DNA from: a virus
Lineage: Duplodnaviria; Heunggongvirae; Uroviricota; Caudoviricetes
Direction: 5' to 3' (one strand)
Virus record (IMG/VR): IMGVR_UViG_3300045988_151230
DNA length: 64,000 nt
The notes beneath the pieces are model-generated. The model saw only the letters and a program-made list of their open reading frames with translations. It did not search any database and had not been told where the DNA came from. Below are positions 9,296-58,291 of this stretch, piece by piece; the first letter of the stretch is position 1, and every line of letters begins with the position of its first letter. Position numbers and translations under genes: made by a program.

Positions 9296-9721
9296 TTAGA
9301 GATAAGCATCCAGTGACAACTGAAGCGCCTGGGCGATCTTTTTCAGTGCCTGCTCTTCTTGTTCACCAATGCCGTCCTGATCGGCAATATCAAGGCACAG
9401 ACACAGAACATCGACCGCCTCTGGAGTACCCGCAATATCAGACAGCTCACGAATAGCCTGTGCATTAGCAGAACGAGGGGACGCTTCGTAACGAGCACGG
9501 ATATTGGCGCTCATTTGGGCAATTTCACCAGCAAACGGAGAAAACGCAGGCAGAGCTGCAATTGTCTTCTCAAGAATGGCAATTTCTTTTGCGTCACATG
9601 TGCCGTCGGCATAGGAGATCATGTACGCGCCCCACACGGTGGCCTCAACCGCATCACGGTTCTCCATTTTTTTGACTTCGATAACTGCTTTACGAGTTTT
9701 CTTTTTGAAGAAACCTAACAT
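9296..9721 (-). CDS. TerB-like (tellurite-resistance TerB domain) protein
   Basis: 141-aa ORF; ADG...DQDGIGEQEEQALKKIAQALQLS resembles TerB helical repeats. Confidence 0.5.
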   Translation of the reverse strand: MLGFFKKKTRKAVIEVKKMENRDAVEATVWGAYMISYADGTCDAKEIAILEKTIAALPAFSPFAGEIAQMSANIRARYEASPRSANAQAIRELSDIAGTPEAVDVLCLCLDIADQDGIGEQEEQALKKIAQALQLSLDAYL

Positions 9722-9742
9722 GTGTTTTCCTTTTGTTATTTG

Positions 9743-9762
9743 TCAAAACAAGTTGTTTTCTA
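9743..9762. promoter_or_regulatory. recurring near-palindromic motif TCAAAACAAGTTGTTTTCTA
   Basis: Upstream of the TerB-like gene start. Confidence 0.45.
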
Positions 9763-9814
9763 GTTACATAAATTGCTTACGCAGAGATGGTCAATGCATA
9801 TGCACTAACAGCCG

Positions 9815-10003
9815 TCAGAAATAACCAAGTACCGAACCAACTGGAAAAACAAAAATCCCAACTACACGAGCCAAGGTCATGCCAGCCTGAAACTGGAGAT
9901 CGCCAGAGCAAACAAGTTTTATAATGTTCGATACCCAACCGGCGGCCATAAGGGCAAGAATTGCCAGCCAAATTTTTCCAAAGTGATTTGAAAACCAGTT
10001 CAT
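9815..10003 (-). CDS. small membrane protein (two predicted TM helices)
   Basis: 62-aa hydrophobic ORF starting right after the upstream stop. Confidence 0.35.
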   Translation of the reverse strand: MNWFSNHFGKIWLAILALMAAGWVSNIIKLVCSGDLQFQAGMTLARVVGIFVFPVGSVLGYF

Positions 10004-10218
10004 ACAACCGCCTTAGTCACAGCATGATCCTGAGTAACTGGATGAACTTGAGGTATCGCATCCACCGCCATCCCATCCAGAGTGACAGGACGCTCCACTG
10101 GAGTGGTGGTAATTGTCGTCGACGAAGGTGTGGTGATGGATGAATCCGGCATCAAAAGGCTCTGACCGGCTGGAACGGCTACCGTCGCCAGTGAAACGAT
10201 AATGAGAACGTAGGCCAT
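10000..10218 (-). CDS. small secreted protein with signal peptide MAYVLIIVSLATVAVPAGQS and Thr/Pro-rich mature part
   Basis: Internal Met of the 83-aa track ORF; overlaps the tail of 10013-10507 in another frame. Confidence 0.3.
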   Translation of the reverse strand: MAYVLIIVSLATVAVPAGQSLLMPDSSITTPSSTTITTTPVERPVTLDGMAVDAIPQVHPVTQDHAVTKAVV

Positions 10219-10507
10219 TGGTTTCAGCCTCTTTCTTTGAAAATTTTCCATTCGAACTGTCCTTGTTGTTTTTCTCCTTCACTAAAGGCCGTGCATTTTT
10301 CGCTTCGCGTGAAGAACCAGAGGCAACAATCGCCCCCACGTTCGCAACAACTGACGCTTGATTATCTAAACGTTCATTCAGCAACCGAACGGTAGTCTCT
10401 AGTTCATCAAGGCGTGACATAACACGACCGCTAAATAATTCGGCCAAAATTTGACGTAAAGAACGAGGACGTTTAGTTACAGAAGTGAAATAGGTTTGAC
10501 GTGCCAT
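10013..10507 (-). CDS. hypothetical protein; N-terminal 85 aa look protein-like, C-terminal S/G/H/C-rich tail may be read-through
   Basis: 164-aa ORF; 3' half overlaps the signal-peptide ORF. Confidence 0.3.
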   Translation of the reverse strand: MARQTYFTSVTKRPRSLRQILAELFSGRVMSRLDELETTVRLLNERLDNQASVVANVGAIVASGSSREAKNARPLVKEKNNKDSSNGKFSKKEAETNGLRSHYRFTGDGSRSSRSEPFDAGFIHHHTFVDDNYHHSSGASCHSGWDGGGCDTSSSSSYSGSCCD

Positions 10508-10655
10508 GTGGACTCCATCCAGTGTCAGAAAGAGTTGCGGCTGGCGATTGCCAGCCGCCTTTCTCGTTCCATCCTGGAACTGTGTCTTACCGACACATTG
10601 TCATCCTGACGCCGATAAGATACATGATTTAAAATGATAGGTAAACACTTACTTA

Positions 10656-11246
10656 CTATTTATTATAAACAAAACCAATATCTTTCTTGTGAGGCATATC
10701 TGCTGCTGAAAAAGCTGCGATCTTCGCGAGTCGATCACATATTTCATTTTCACGATGCCCGGCGTGACCTTTAACCCACTTCCAGCGAACATTATGTCGA
10801 CTTGCGGCCTCATCCAGACGCTTCCACAGATCAACATTCTTTACCGGTTTTTTGTCAGAAGTCATCCATCCATTGCGTTTCCACCATTTCATCCACTGTG
10901 TCATGCCGTTTTTCAGATACTGGCTATCAGAGTGCAAAATAACGTTGCATGGATATTTCAAACGCTCCAGCCCGATAAGTGCCCCCATCATCTCCATGCG
11001 GTTATTGGTGGTGCTATGAAAACCATCTGAGAACTCGCGTTCCTCACCACGATACTGGAGAACGATACCGTAACCGCCCGGGCCACCCGGATTTTTAAGG
11101 CAAGAGCCATCACTAAAGATTTTCACGGTTTTAAGCTGGGGATTGAACTCTACGACAGGCGTTGTGGGATTGGTGCGGGGGGAATTTTTGTTTTTGGCTT
11201 TTTTGCGAGTTTTTGCTTGCGATCGGGCTGGTGTCTTCGTCGTCAT
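10656..11246 (-). CDS. rnhA: ribonuclease HI
   Basis: [38 protein letters not shown] motifs; start taken at MTTKTP with AGGAG RBS; basic N-terminal extension. Confidence 0.85.
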
Positions 11247-11831
11247 ATAAACTCCTGAATCAAGCGCCGCGCCGATTTTTCCTCGCGCGTGCGCACACGC
11301 GTGCGTGTTAATAATTATTAAAATAAACAAATTACTTCCCAGAACAGGTTTTTATAAACCTGAACTGAACGAACGAAGTGAGTGAAGTTCACCTCGAACG
11401 AAGTGAGAGGTTGTCTTTTCAGGTAATACTCTCCCAGGGAGGTGAGTATAAAAATCTCTCACCAACCTGGTCGTTTCATAACCTGAAAAGTTATGGTCTA
11501 AGTCTACTGCCAGCTTAGACTTGGGAAGTTATGGATGACAGCACCCCAGAACCGAGATCTTCCCACACTTTATGAAGGGGAGTACTGGATTCAACCTCTC
11601 TAAACACCCCAGACTCGACAATCATAAAGTGACCCTTGTCTCTGCTCACTTTGGTTCCCCCTTCCCCGACACCTAAACGGCACCAGTTCTACGCTGGTAG
11701 TGAGCTTTTTTAAACCTGACGCCAGTGACGCTTACCCCCACCCATCAGGTCGAGTCTCCAGTCTACGACTGGAAACTATCAGATCTTAGCACTTACAATT
11801 CACTTTATGAATAGTTTGTACTTATCTATCA

Positions 11832-12244: not shown

Positions 12245-12838
12245 CTAAGCAGCCTTCTTTGATGGTCTTTTTTTCCTGATCACATTCGCAGGATCATACC
12301 CTCCCAGACTTTTCATGACGTCCAAAGGGATCTTGCTTATAGAGTGCCCAGCGTCCTGACAGAATCCTCGAAAAACAACGAGCATACTGCCACCTGGGTT
12401 GATGTTTACTTCTACCTGACCCAGATTTACGTCAGGCTCGACAAACGCTACGCGGCCACCAGACAGAATAATCGTCTCATTCGCACACTCTGTTGCACGC
12501 TCATACCACTTTGTATCTAGGGATTGAGGAATTAGCATCACTGTTGTAACTCCGCGAGCCTGCTCACGTATAGCCGCATCAATCCAGGGGTAGATTTTGG
12601 AGTAGGGTGGATTGAGGAAGGCAATTGTACCTGGCTGTCCCCATTCAGATTTCAAAGCATCACGCTCAACGCCTATGAAATTAGGCAGCTTTGCATTGTC
12701 CTTGTTGCAGGCAACGTCAACATCAAATGTCACTCCAAGATAACGTTGAATGGCAGAAAACAGCCAGTCAGGTGTTCTCCAGAGGTCACGAAGAGAGTTG
12801 TCGCGCTTTCGCTGTTTGATTTTTTCGGCTGCAATCAT
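12245..12838 (-). CDS. phage-type DNA N6-adenine methyltransferase (Dam-like)
   Basis: 197-aa ORF; WRTPDWLF and FLNPPYS motifs. Confidence 0.75.
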   Translation of the reverse strand: MIAAEKIKQRKRDNSLRDLWRTPDWLFSAIQRYLGVTFDVDVACNKDNAKLPNFIGVERDALKSEWGQPGTIAFLNPPYSKIYPWIDAAIREQARGVTTVMLIPQSLDTKWYERATECANETIILSGGRVAFVEPDVNLGQVEVNINPGGSMLVVFRGFCQDAGHSISKIPLDVMKSLGGYDPANVIRKKRPSKKAA

Positions 12839-19962: not shown

Positions 19963-19998
19963 TTAAACAAGTTGTTATCTTATGTGTTTAAACAAGGC
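19963..19998. promoter_or_regulatory. recurring motif TTAAACAAGTTGTTATCTTA plus a second half-site GTTTAAACAAGG upstream of nrdB
   Basis: Lies between the nrdB start and the IS left end. Confidence 0.45.
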
Positions 19999-32719: not shown

Positions 32720-32739
32720 TTAAACAAATTGTTTTCTTA
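32720..32739. promoter_or_regulatory. recurring near-palindromic motif TTAAACAAATTGTTTTCTTA
   Basis: 15 bp upstream of the start at 32705. Confidence 0.45.
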
Positions 32740-46378: not shown

Positions 46379-46476
46379 GGCTAATCCTTTGTTATGAAAA
46401 CAAATTATTTACTAGTGTGTTTAATGTAGCACTGCGCGAACAGGGAACTAAGCCATTCGCGCAGGGAGAAGAGGGG

Positions 46477-50796: not shown

Positions 50797-50883
50797 TGGC
50801 GGAGAGTAATGGAATCGAACCATCATCGCTTGCGCAATGGGACGGTTTTCAAGACCGCTTGAGCACCATGCTCCCTACTCTCC
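50797..50883 (-). tRNA. tRNA-Ser (anticodon UGA), class II with long variable arm
   Basis: GGAGAGT/ACTCTCC acceptor stem, anticodon loop CTTGAAA, T-loop TTCGATT, encoded CCA. Confidence 0.8.
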
Positions 50884-51100
50884 AATTGTTGTGGTTACCG
50901 GTACTGATCTCCGGCTTAGCGACCCCGGCTACTGACTGCATTGCAGTGTGTGAACTCGCCTCGTGTGTCGCTGGGGCATTTCTTTCCGCGCATCAGTCTG
51001 CGCATCAACCACAACGAAAAGAGCACTGTATGACGTTTGCACGGACTTACGCTTAAAACAGGGCAGTCTCGGCGGTTTTCAATGCTCTTTCCTGTTGTGT

Positions 51101-51176
51101 TGGTGCCGGTTAACGGACTCGAACCGCTGACATCCTGCTTACAAGGCAGGCGCTCTACCAACTGAGCTAAACCGGC
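51101..51176 (-). tRNA. tRNA-Thr (anticodon UGU)
   Basis: GCCGGTT/AACCGGC acceptor stem, D-arm GCTCAGTTGGTAGAGC, anticodon loop CTTGTAA, encoded CCA. Confidence 0.85.
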
Positions 51177-51180
51177 AATT

Positions 51181-51267
51181 TGGTGGGGAGTGATGGAGTC
51201 GAACCACCCGAGTCGCAATGACAGTAGATTTACAGTCTACACCGCTACCTCTACGGACTAACTCCCC
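51181..51267 (-). tRNA. tRNA-Tyr (anticodon GUA), class II
   Basis: GGGGAGT/ACTCCCC acceptor stem, anticodon loop CTGTAAA, long variable arm, T-loop TTCGACT, encoded CCA. Confidence 0.8.
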
Positions 51268-51272
51268 TAAAT

Positions 51273-51347
51273 TGGCGATGGTGGGTGGATTCGAACCACC
51301 GACCAGTTGGTTAACAGCCAACTGCTCTACCGCTGAGCTACACCATC
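51273..51347 (-). tRNA. tRNA-Asn (anticodon GUU)
   Basis: GATGGTG/CACCATC acceptor stem, anticodon loop CTGTTAA, T-arm GGTGGTTCGAATCCACC, encoded CCA. Confidence 0.85.
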
Positions 51348-58272: not shown

Positions 58273-58291
58273 TTAAACAAATTGTTTTCTA
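58273..58291. promoter_or_regulatory. recurring near-palindromic motif TTAAACAAATTGTTTTCTA
   Basis: 18 bp upstream of the helicase start. Confidence 0.45.

Follow-up and report, generated by a model that had tools for sequence, protein, structure and literature searches.

Two separable accessory modules, one with a conserved out-of-frame overlap of reading frames, in an SSU5-like phage-plasmid of Escherichia coli

The DNA analyzed here is a window of 64,000 nucleotides, and the element that carries its open reading frames (ORFs) is an SSU5-like E. coli phage-plasmid. The element in the window is 99.8% identical to E. coli plasmids of about 110 kb and shows 96-98% identity to the Escherichia phages Cyrano, CMS-2020a and PhiR41_1, and SSU5 matched the query at 79% over the RNase H end. 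This phage-plasmid family is clinically common in Enterobacterales, and about 680 PLSDB plasmids carry the locus of two overlapping ORFs, orf164 and orf83, that is described below. All ORFs of the interval (those for the TerB protein, orf62, orf83, orf164 and a DUF3927 peptide) are carried by the minus strand, and the order of transcription is RNase H, orf164/orf83, orf62 and TerB. The neighbors of the locus encode RNase H, a DUF4942 methyltransferase, a Dam methylase, orf184 and hypothetical proteins; as a first-pass annotation of this DNA had stated, no ATPase or helicase partner is found among them. The four ORFs which that annotation had called were all present in the ORF list at the coordinates it gave, although its description of the TerB gene as being followed by the small proteins is reversed by the direction of transcription, which puts TerB downstream of them. 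The features of the locus are as follows, in order of position.

9114-9135, minus strand: GC-rich, terminator-like hairpin directly 3' of the tciB-like gene
9138-9296, minus strand: DUF3927/TciB-like membrane peptide of 52 aa with two hydrophobic segments (Pfam, PHROG, hydropathy)
9296-9721, minus strand: TerB-domain protein of 141 aa, orthologue of P1 TciA (Pfam TerB, phrog_632, identity to P1 TciA)
9746-9760, minus strand: palindrome GAAAACAACTTGTTT, a candidate operator or promoter element that precedes the tciA-like start by 24 nt
9815-10003, minus strand: orf62, small two-TM membrane protein of 62 aa (phrog_6006; two TM segments by hydropathy)
10000-10251, minus strand: orf83, 83 aa, in the +1 frame of orf164 (phrog_15659)
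10013-10507, minus strand: orf164, 164 aa, the frame referred to as F0 (ORF list; phrog_10411)
10260-10264, minus strand: AAGGA, resembling a Shine-Dalgarno sequence, 8 nt before the ATG of orf83
10537-10558, either strand: GC-rich 9-bp hairpin between the RNase H gene and orf164

The interval is made up of two independent accessory modules, module A (9138-9721) and module B (9815-10507). It had been read as one TerB-centered cluster; instead, TerB and DUF3927 form a separate module, the tciA/tciB module of P1, and this module is absent from SSU5 and other relatives in which orf164/orf83 are retained. In SSU5, an Ant gene stands in place of TerB/DUF3927, and two further loci (L093 and L097) are without TerB. 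Across about 77 loci, orf164 lies directly after RNase H wherever the upstream flank was recovered, and TciA/TciB are found in about 53 of them. TerB/DUF3927 is present without orf164/orf83 in P1 and in lambdoid phages, in one of which the tciA/tciB pair sits between Q and the holin gene. TerB/DUF3927 and orf164/orf83 thus each occur without the other.

For module A, a profile search bore out the proposed TerB similarity: the match to Pfam TerB (PF05099) scored 31.5 bits (E 2.4e-7) against a gathering cut-off of 24.4 and covered profile positions 9-109 of 118. The protein also matched phrog_632, ‘tellurite resistance’ (E 4.8e-63), and is 78.7% identical to P1 TciA over its full length (residues 1-141). 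The 52-aa peptide matched Pfam DUF3927 at 46.6 bits, above the cut-off, and phrog_1470, ‘TciB-like’; the interval of the first-pass annotation stopped at 9296 and therefore missed this partner of TerB. The two genes meet in a TAATG junction, in which the ATG of the DUF3927 peptide overlaps the TerB stop, and P1 has the same tciA-tciB order, likewise with an overlapping stop and start. The pair is therefore the P1 tciA/tciB module, which is widespread in phages and already named in public annotation. It is carried in both cases by a phage-plasmid; the locus here differs from that of P1 in being without tciC, the flanking tRNA genes and the ban helicase, and in being preceded by the palindrome typical of the element, whereas the ban operon of P1 is preceded by the C1 operator. 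A phmmer search of TciA against PDB sequences returned no solved TerB relative.

For P1 TciA, a role in tellurite or colicin resistance, or in the inhibition of phages or of cell division, has been assigned by homology alone (GenBank notes; PMC9603915; PMC6799933). Published accounts cite the TerB of the ter operon as membrane-associated and link that operon to tellurite and colicin resistance and to phage inhibition (10.1101/2022.05.11.491447, PMC9603915, PMC8123226). The locus shares the TerB domain PF05099 with the ter operon (terZABCDE) of IncHI2 plasmids and pathogenic E. coli, but no TerC, TerD, TerZ or TerE genes are near it, and where that operon has the multi-pass TerC, TerB is partnered here by a peptide of 52 aa. 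In the defense systems Shango (SngABC), Bunzi and Dionysus (DinABC), the TerB domain is thought to survey the membrane (10.1101/2022.05.11.491447; 10.1101/2025.09.30.679545). Compared to these systems, of which Dionysus was compared by domain content only, the locus has no ATPase, helicase or pore-forming partner, and its element is a phage rather than a host defense island. PADLOC models gave no match for any of the six locus proteins at E<=0.01, and the link to phage conflict that had been suggested for the cluster is not borne out by any PADLOC defense model.

Module A would comprise a soluble TerB-fold protein, translationally coupled to the 52-aa peptide, whose two hydrophobic segments probably tether the TerB protein to the inner membrane. 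The module is a mobile phage ‘moron’, and comparison with ter operons and TerB-containing defense systems makes the cytoplasmic membrane its most likely site of action, where it might serve in envelope or ion stress or exclude colicins or phages. TerB domains have recently been met in several anti-phage systems; the TerB/DUF3927 part, a widespread phage pair that already bears a name in public annotation, adds nothing new.

Module B contains orf164, orf83 and orf62. The N-terminal ~60 aa of orf164 are conserved and consist of a basic segment and a long helix; a variable linker follows the helix and leads into a tail rich in Ser, Gly, His, Asp and Cys that ends in CCD. The AF2 model of orf164 has helices at residues 17-25 and 28-70 and a pLDDT below 50 over residues 67-164, and the tail is thus predicted to be disordered. 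Hydropathy analysis found no TM segment in orf164, with a maximum 17-residue hydropathy of 1.03, and a GGAG motif lies 5 nt upstream of its ATG. The orf83 frame begins with MENFQRKRLKP, which is followed by a hydrophobic helix of ~20 aa, a Pro/Thr-rich region and an LDGMxxDxI motif; its hydropathy profile has one TM-like segment (residues 9-34), and the AF2 model has a helix at residues 3-24, with the rest at low confidence. A two-TM peptide and a signal-peptide protein had been proposed from the sequence; the hydropathy profiles bear out the two TM segments of orf62 and the hydrophobic N-terminal segment of orf83, which may be either a membrane anchor or a signal peptide with candidate cleavage near VPA|GQ. 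The different-frame overlap noted between this ORF and the one at 10013-10507 is likewise found, with orf83 in the +1 frame of orf164; the two overlap by 239 nt. The stop of orf83 is in turn overlapped by the ATG of orf62 in the sequence ATGA, and ATGA or GTGA is kept wherever orf62 is present, orf62 itself being absent from three loci (L093, L114 and L118).

None of orf164, orf83 and orf62 was matched by a family of known function in Pfam, NCBIfam, PADLOC, PHROGs or PDB sequence profiles, or when 1.84 billion representatives were searched exhaustively with profiles, and beyond their own family the database searches gave only weak coiled-coil matches. The orf164 family was found solely in SSU5-like phage-plasmids, word-index searches with orf83 and orf62 found nothing beyond this phage-plasmid family, and a scan of genome contigs added only three loci.

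Both frames of the overlap are conserved and kept open, and the orf83 frame carries a coding-type substitution signature. Both were open in all of the intact distinct sequences (54/54), which represent at least eight lineages, and also in two remote relatives that were reached by profile search only (E 1.7e-4), one of which has GTG as the +1 start. In the 54 intact sequences, the +1 stop always lies 13 nt beyond the F0 stop. The first-pass annotation had left the choice between a frameshift and two real nested genes; these sequences speak for the nested genes, and the frameshift half of that alternative was not upheld. Consistent with this, because both frames are open in the 54 sequences and in the two remote relatives, the overlap is not a sequencing frameshift. 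Homopolymer indels do occur in other assemblies, at the T4 run of 10154-10157 (L002 and P0011), and could suggest that an assembly or sequencing error has split one gene in the window. However, the arrangement of the window is the majority state, the 54 distinct sequences come from independent sources, and the same arrangement is seen in divergent lineages with in-frame indels; the comparative data refute such an error, to which we assign a negligible probability.

The start of orf83 (ATG or GTG) is conserved in all lineages, as is a GGA(G) 5-9 nt upstream of it, at which the F0 residues vary (KD, ME, GK, KE). The TM helix after the basic N-terminus is conserved with conservative replacements. 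Within the overlap, position 1 of the F0 codon, which is position 3 of the +1 codon, is the most variable (165:139:117 for the three positions), compared to counts of 170:114:286 in the non-overlapping part of orf164. In 24 of 28 lineage pairs, conservation was higher for the +1 protein than for the F0 tail. At 0.44, the amino-acid divergence of the +1 protein is the same as in the unique part of F0; for F0 within the overlap, the amino-acid divergence is 0.54 and synonymous differences are only 0.17. Codon-usage scores in the overlap were 0.190 for +1, 0.095 for F0 and -0.32 for the third frame, relative to a non-coding 95th percentile of about 0.02. Any +1-synonymous change alters both other frames, so the third frame is no clean control; it was discarded as a control for F0 conservation and explicit simulations were used in its place. 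Substitution classes among close relatives (MST edges of <=6% divergence) were all near neutral and uninformative. Across the lineages, the coding-type substitution pattern in the overlap belongs to the orf83 frame.

These measurements bear on the reading in which only orf164 is a gene and the +1 ORF is an untranslated by-product of the Ser/Gly/His-rich composition of its tail. In synonymous-codon and codon-order shuffles, an open +1 frame was expected given the orf164 protein (P 0.1-0.9), as this reading would have it, and RefSeq and most phage records annotate orf164 alone. The length of the orf83 ORF was dropped as evidence on account of the shuffles, and since openness is unsurprising, the case for orf83 rests on its start, its ribosome-binding motif, its TM helix and the substitutions. 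Each of these speaks against orf164 as the only gene: the substitutions follow the +1 frame and leave its protein more conserved than the F0 tail, the start codon and GGA(G) persist while the F0 residues vary, a 20-residue hydrophobic helix is conserved after a basic N-terminus, and orf83 and orf62 share nucleotides at their stop-start junction. In addition, simulation of selection on F0 alone did not reproduce the observed divergence values, and the +1 start or ORF was lost in most runs, the probability that both were kept being only about 0.6 x 0.12-0.2 per pairwise distance. We therefore consider it very unlikely that orf164 is the only gene.

The converse reading, that only orf83 matters in the overlap, requires that orf164 be functional in its first ~70-90 residues and that its tail be functionless, tolerated read-through over orf83, left open by chance and composition. 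When selection was simulated on the 21 invariant orf83 codons alone, the F0 tail diverged in amino-acid sequence by 0.56, in agreement with the observed 0.54, and the tail is therefore without detectable amino-acid constraint. The predicted disorder of the tail fits this reading, as does its composition, in which His, Asp, Asn and Tyr correspond to NAC/NAT codons where the +1 frame needs Thr or Ile. Nonetheless, F0 in the overlap is stop-free more often than expected, with codon usage above the non-coding range. Given the +1 protein, the probability of an open F0 was 0.02-0.19 in each of 10 representative sequences, which is weak evidence for any single lineage, and the simulated probability that F0 stays open was 0.15 per pairwise distance. 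Fisher combination of one value per lineage, over eight lineages, gave ~3e-4 if the lineages are independent; this combined value and the comparison of nucleotide identity between the overlap and the non-overlapping part are optimistic, given the relatedness of the lineages and the mosaicism of these phages, L099 being a recombinant. T was found before a ‘risk’ codon at 0 of 579 positions, compared to 33% T at other +1 third positions, and in eight alignment columns T occurred solely in lineages whose next codon is harmless. The F0 end position is identical in all lineages, including remote ones without orf62, and the remote homologues P0052 and P0059 still end in the Ser-rich ...C(C)D motif. 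Against these observations, we regard an overlap in which orf83 is the only functional frame as possible, but rather unlikely.

Frameshifts in the overlap were present in a number of database sequences (L002, L084, L109, P0010, P0011, P0013, P0014 and P0018, and further in P0024, P0048, P0050 and P0053), which would mean that the module can be dispensed with or that this stretch is prone to assembly errors. Some of these sequences raise the question of whether the main product is a bitopic fusion made by programmed +1 frameshifting, in which the orf164 helix is joined to the TM and extracytoplasmic part of orf83. Fusions of exactly this kind exist at the DNA level in several lineages (P0024, P0050 and P0053), with partial fusions in others (P0011, P0013, P0014, P0018, P0048, L084 and L109), and the open +1 frame reaches back beyond the orf83 start by 9-79 codons in different lineages. 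However, the fusion points differ among the database variants in the manner of indels, and inspection of the aligned sequences found no slippery site or prfB-type 0-frame stop conserved at one position. F0 also stays open for ~80 codons past any plausible shift site, which frameshifting does not require, and orf83 has its own conserved start and ribosome-binding motif. A frameshift fusion as the main product is accordingly highly improbable in our estimate.

The arrangement of module B recalls that of lambda Rz/Rz1, in which the 3' part of a longer gene, for a coiled-coil protein of a tailed phage, likewise holds the +1 reading frame of a short Pro-rich envelope protein. The differences are several: orf164 has no TM domain, whereas an i-spanin has one at its N-terminus; no lineage has a conserved Cys after the hydrophobic segment of orf83, whereas an o-spanin is a lipobox lipoprotein; and orf83 runs 13 nt past the end of orf164, whereas Rz1 is fully embedded in Rz. 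Moreover, orf164/orf83 belong to the early/replication region, and about 51 kb separate them from the lysis genes of SSU5; in the SSU5 genome the holin, endolysin and Rz-like genes are at 27.5-29.0 kb and the orf164 homologue, SSU5_091, is at 80.0-80.5 kb. A spanin pair was considered for orf164/orf83 and is ruled out by the hydropathy of orf164, the missing lipobox Cys and the distance from the lysis cassette. In phiX174 D/E and in hok/mok, the gene for a small membrane protein is overlapped by another reading frame. As in those cases, an ORF here covers, in another frame, the gene of a small protein (roughly 50-90 aa) that begins with a TM helix, whose synthesis could conceivably be coupled to translation upstream; the sequences are not similar, and the element has its own full lysis cassette. 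An Rfam scan of the whole window at gathering thresholds returned only tRNAs, and thus no family of the hok/mok-sok type I toxin loci.

We therefore return to the reading that we favor, and hold with moderate confidence to be the probable one: the interval contains two independent modules, and module B consists of two genuine genes that overlap out of frame, with a third gene coupled behind them. We infer that both frames are translated, and likewise how their products are oriented in the membrane and that they have an accessory role directed at the envelope. The orf164 product would be a cytoplasmic protein with a conserved basic segment and long helix (residues 1-70) and a disordered tail, and the 3' half of its gene would also encode orf83 in the +1 frame, from its own conserved ribosome-binding motif and start. 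The small orf83 product may consist of a signal or anchor helix at its N-terminus and an extracytoplasmic part rich in Pro and Thr. As the orf83 stop and the orf62 start overlap (ATGA), both small envelope proteins are probably made in fixed proportion. The role of module B might be, for instance, superinfection exclusion or modulation of the envelope, a suggestion that is purely conjectural.

A further proposal, which we consider unlikely, is that orf164/orf83 are dual-coding and that their products cooperate across the inner membrane as a previously undescribed phage-plasmid envelope module. Its parts would be a coiled-coil protein in the cytoplasm, whose His/Cys-rich tail may bind metal, an envelope-anchored Pro/Thr-rich protein and the two-TM orf62; examples of what it could be are a new superinfection-exclusion system, or a toxin-like system regulated by overlapping-frame translation. 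If this were true, the overlap would enforce co-inheritance and co-expression, as in Rz/Rz1.

A literature search found no description of the orf164/orf83 overlap, and the phage-plasmid survey papers are silent on the genes of the locus. The overlap is annotated as a single gene in SSU5, Cyrano, pJN2-26, ST13-OXA48phi12.3 and the E. coli plasmid records examined. To our knowledge, large tailed phages rarely have long out-of-frame overlaps that are conserved, spanins excepted. If both frames are confirmed to be translated, the overlap would be a clean second example beside the spanins, and a missing small envelope-protein gene would be added to the annotation of these phage-plasmids. The diagnostic Arg-C/tryptic peptide of orf83 is PVTLDGMAVDAIPQVHPVTQDHAVTK, and the F0 tail is devoid of Lys and Arg beyond residue 114. 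With respect to regulation, the palindromic motif that precedes module A occurs in 11 copies in the window, compared to 0.2 expected, some of them just upstream of the starts of orf184 (8998) and the DUF4942 methyltransferase (8290).

The 3.1-kb stretch around the overlapping genes shares 99.8% identity with non-mobilizable E. coli plasmids of ~110 kb, 96-98% with the Escherichia phages Cyrano, CMS-2020a and PhiR41_1, and ~77% with Klebsiella phage-plasmids; a 79% match to Salmonella phage SSU5 covers only the RNase H end of the 3.1-kb query. By these identities, the window is an SSU5-like phage-plasmid. The minus strand carries every gene of the studied region. The ORFs of the first-pass annotation (named here by length in amino acids) were all found at their coordinates, and the interval it delimited proved one gene short, leaving out a 52-aa DUF3927 peptide.

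Genes and features of the studied region, in transcription order
10656-11330, minus strand, RNase H gene, first
10013-10507, minus strand, orf164, second
10000-10251, minus strand, orf83, in the +1 frame of orf164
9815-10003, minus strand, orf62, third
9296-9721, minus strand, TerB protein gene, fourth
9138-9296, minus strand, DUF3927 peptide gene (52 aa), fifth
9114-9135, terminator-like hairpin after the DUF3927 peptide gene
8444-8998, minus strand, orf184, last

A second GC-rich hairpin separates orf164 from the RNase H gene. In its longest ORF, RNase H carries ~60 extra N-terminal residues, a Lys/Arg-rich stretch among them, ahead of the RNase H domain at residues 68-206; public records start this gene further in (196-197 aa). 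The region is flanked by two minus-strand genes of DNA methyltransferase type, one for a DUF4942 protein with a weak N6_Mtase match (6605-8290) and one for a phage Dam family protein (12245-12838). Such genes are typical of the SSU5-like early region. An Rfam scan of the window returned tRNAs only; a four-tRNA cluster lies at 50797-51347 on the minus strand (Ser-TGA, Thr-TGT, Tyr-GTA and Asn-GTT, the Ser tRNA by ARAGORN only).

The overlap of orf164 and orf83 had been read as either a frameshift or two real nested genes. Homologous loci were collected from IMG/VR, GTDB genomes, phage and plasmid records and metagenome contigs. Both frames are intact in 54 of the 57 distinct nucleotide versions, which refutes a frameshift error, and in these 54 the +1 ORF ends 13 nt past the orf164 stop; where orf62 is present, its junction is ATGA or GTGA. 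At least six lineages are represented; protein identity between them falls as low as 40-50%, and in-frame indels occur. Two remote relatives, P0052 and P0059 (E 1.7e-4), were reached by exhaustive profile search only, and they again show the RNase H ... TerB context with both frames present, one of them with GTG in place of ATG as the +1 start. The overlap is thus not a sequence error. Frameshifted variants are a minority and differ in position (for example the homologues L084, L109, P0024, P0048, P0050 and P0053); locus L002 has one extra base in the run at 10154-10157.

This run of four T residues, on the minus strand within the overlap and directly followed by TGA in the –1 frame, is an indel hot spot in public sequences. 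One extra base truncates orf164 at 118 aa in NZ_CP024264, and one base fewer fuses the orf164 N-terminus to the orf83 C-terminus in four homologues (P0011, P0013, P0014 and P0018); these indels may be sequencing errors, pseudogenes or real variation. On inspection of the aligned sequences, no conserved slippery site for programmed frameshifting was evident. In a Cronobacter-type lineage (L085-L091 and L095), the +1 frame is open across nearly the whole orf164 homologue in most sequences (162 codons; 119 in L095), where translation from an upstream ATG would yield 115 aa; we take this lineage-specific openness as chance.

The length of the orf83 ORF is itself uninformative, since the +1 frame was usually open when the orf164 protein was fixed and its synonymous codons shuffled (P 0.1-0.9). 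The substitutions are more telling. Changes at codon positions 1:2:3 number 170:114:286 in the unique 5' part of orf164, a normal coding pattern, and 165:139:117 at the orf164 positions in the overlap, which is what coding in the +1 frame normally gives (orf164 position 1 being third in that frame). In independent pairwise alignments the orf83 protein is better conserved than the orf164 tail (the C-terminal part encoded in the overlap) in 24 of 28 lineage pairs. Amino acid divergence is 0.44 for both orf83 and the unique part of orf164; for orf164 in the overlap it reaches 0.54, with synonymous differences of only 0.17, and this semblance of omega above 1 is typical of a non-selected frame. 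Simulation under selection on orf164 alone did not reproduce the observed values: it predicted an orf83 divergence of 0.50-0.54, and per pairwise distance it kept the orf83 start in ~60% of runs and the ORF open in ~12-20%. The start codon is kept despite N/H/D/R replacements in orf164 (xAT GGA or CGT GGA), as is a GGA(G) motif 5-9 nt upstream, where the orf164 residues vary, and the 20-residue hydrophobic helix of orf83 shows conservative changes only. Together, the substitution pattern, the simulation misfit, the kept start, the GGA(G) motif and the conservative helix changes argue that orf83 is a real gene.

For the orf164 tail the evidence is mixed, and the tail could lack a function of its own. 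When selection in a model acts on just 21 invariant orf83 codons and the rest drift, the tail diverges by 0.56, against 0.54 observed; AlphaFold predicts helices at residues 17-25 and 28-70 of orf164 and nothing confident past residue 67; and the His, Asn, Asp and Tyr residues of the tail are the product of NAC/NAT codons where the +1 frame needs Thr or Ile. However, the frame stays open more often than expected. Conditional on the orf83 protein, the probability that orf164 runs to its usual stop is 0.02-0.19, taking 10 representative sequences one by one (Fisher combination of one value per lineage for eight lineages, ~3e-4 if independent, which they are only partially), and the simulated chance of its staying open is 0.15 per pairwise distance. 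At the +1 third position, T precedes a codon starting with AA, AG or GA in 0 of 579 cases, whereas elsewhere it makes up 33%; in eight alignment columns, T occurs only in lineages with a harmless next codon. Remote homologues keep both the position of the stop and the Ser-rich ...C(C)D terminus. Scored for codon usage within the overlap, orf164 reaches 0.095, orf83 0.190 and the third frame –0.32, the first two exceeding the range of the non-coding frames of the element's long genes (95th percentile ~0.02). Our reading is that orf164 is probably translated to its end, with the frame kept open, and that the role of the tail depends on composition, not on exact sequence. The overlap is real and conserved and most likely dual-coding, orf83 being the better supported frame.

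No library searched gave a function for orf164, orf83 or orf62, whose families occur only in SSU5-like phage-plasmids of Enterobacterales (Escherichia, Shigella, Klebsiella, Enterobacter, Salmonella, Citrobacter, Cronobacter, Kluyvera and Buttiauxella). By hydropathy, orf62 has two hydrophobic segments, in agreement with its first description as a two-TM peptide, orf164 has none, and orf83, described as a signal-peptide protein, has one after a basic N-terminus. From this anatomy, orf164 would be a cytoplasmic helical protein accompanied by two small proteins of the inner membrane or periplasm whose synthesis is coupled, and an envelope-directed accessory role, such as superinfection exclusion or envelope modulation, seems likeliest. 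The layout recalls Rz/Rz1, where a Pro-rich envelope protein lies in the +1 frame of a coiled-coil gene. A spanin identity was rejected on three defining features: orf164 lacks a TM domain, orf83 lacks a lipobox cysteine, and in SSU5 a separate set of holin, endolysin and Rz-like genes, together with the Cor exclusion gene, lies ~51 kb away. With phiX174 D/E and hok/mok the likeness is in architecture only.

The TerB assignment held on profile search (Pfam PF05099, 31.5 bits against a gathering score of 24.4; phrog_632, E 4.8e-63). Along its whole length the protein shares 78.7% identity with phage P1 TciA, and its stop overlaps the start of the DUF3927 peptide, which has two hydrophobic segments, as TAATG; tciA-tciB are arranged likewise inside the P1 ban operon. 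By homology, the pair is identified as P1 tciA/tciB, in which the small membrane peptide TciB would hold TciA at the membrane. The TerB reading was correct but already known, with no link to the overlapping genes, and this part is ordinary apart from its function, which the papers mentioning tciA/tciB describe as untested (PMC9603915, PMC6799933). TerB domains also occur in the Shango, Bunzi and Dionysus defence systems, for which membrane surveillance has been proposed (10.1101/2022.05.11.491447; 10.1101/2025.09.30.679545). The partner genes of those systems are absent at this locus, where the first-pass annotation had already noted no ATPase or helicase partner; no ter operon partners lie near the TerB gene, and PADLOC defence models gave no match. 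By tblastn, the TerB protein has matches in 100 phage records, among them P1-like and SSU5-like phage-plasmids, temperate phages of Klebsiella and Escherichia, Erwinia jumbo phages and Pseudomonas and Vibrio phages. Phage Fostie carries the pair in the classical place for a moron, flanked by a Q-like antiterminator and the holin gene.

Comparison of loci shows that the TerB/DUF3927 pair and orf164/orf83/orf62 are separable modules. Among ~77 loci, RNase H is followed by orf164 in each whose upstream flank was recovered (the three without an RNase H match start within ~400 nt of orf164), and TciA/TciB are present in ~53. TerB is absent from lineages L093 and L097, and orf62 from L093, L114 and L118. 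SSU5 keeps orf164/orf83/orf62 and carries the Ant gene in place of TerB/DUF3927. This anti-repressor gene (2491-3225 in NC_018843.1) occupies exactly the place of tciA/tciB (window 9138-9721), and the site between orf62 and the orf184 homologue is a cargo-exchange point in the SSU5-like family.

The palindrome GAAAACAACTTGTTT is found 24 nt ahead of the TerB start. Its form is GAAAACAA(C/T)TTGTTT, i.e. AAACAA-N-TTGTTT, and the window holds 11 copies against 0.2 expected, including the following.

Copies of the palindrome
5394-5408, plus strand
8303-8317, minus strand
9017-9031, minus strand
9746-9760, minus strand
19965-19979, minus strand
32722-32736, minus strand
46396-46410, plus strand
58275-58289, minus strand
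61511-61525, minus strand

Within the studied region there are three, which precede the starts of the DUF4942 methyltransferase gene, orf184 and tciA by 12-25 nt. Because copies stand upstream of both TerB and neighbouring gene starts, the TerB pair appears to have its own regulatory element, and the palindrome is a candidate for an operator or promoter in SSU5-like phage-plasmids. Divergent relatives show it ahead of the homologous genes as well.
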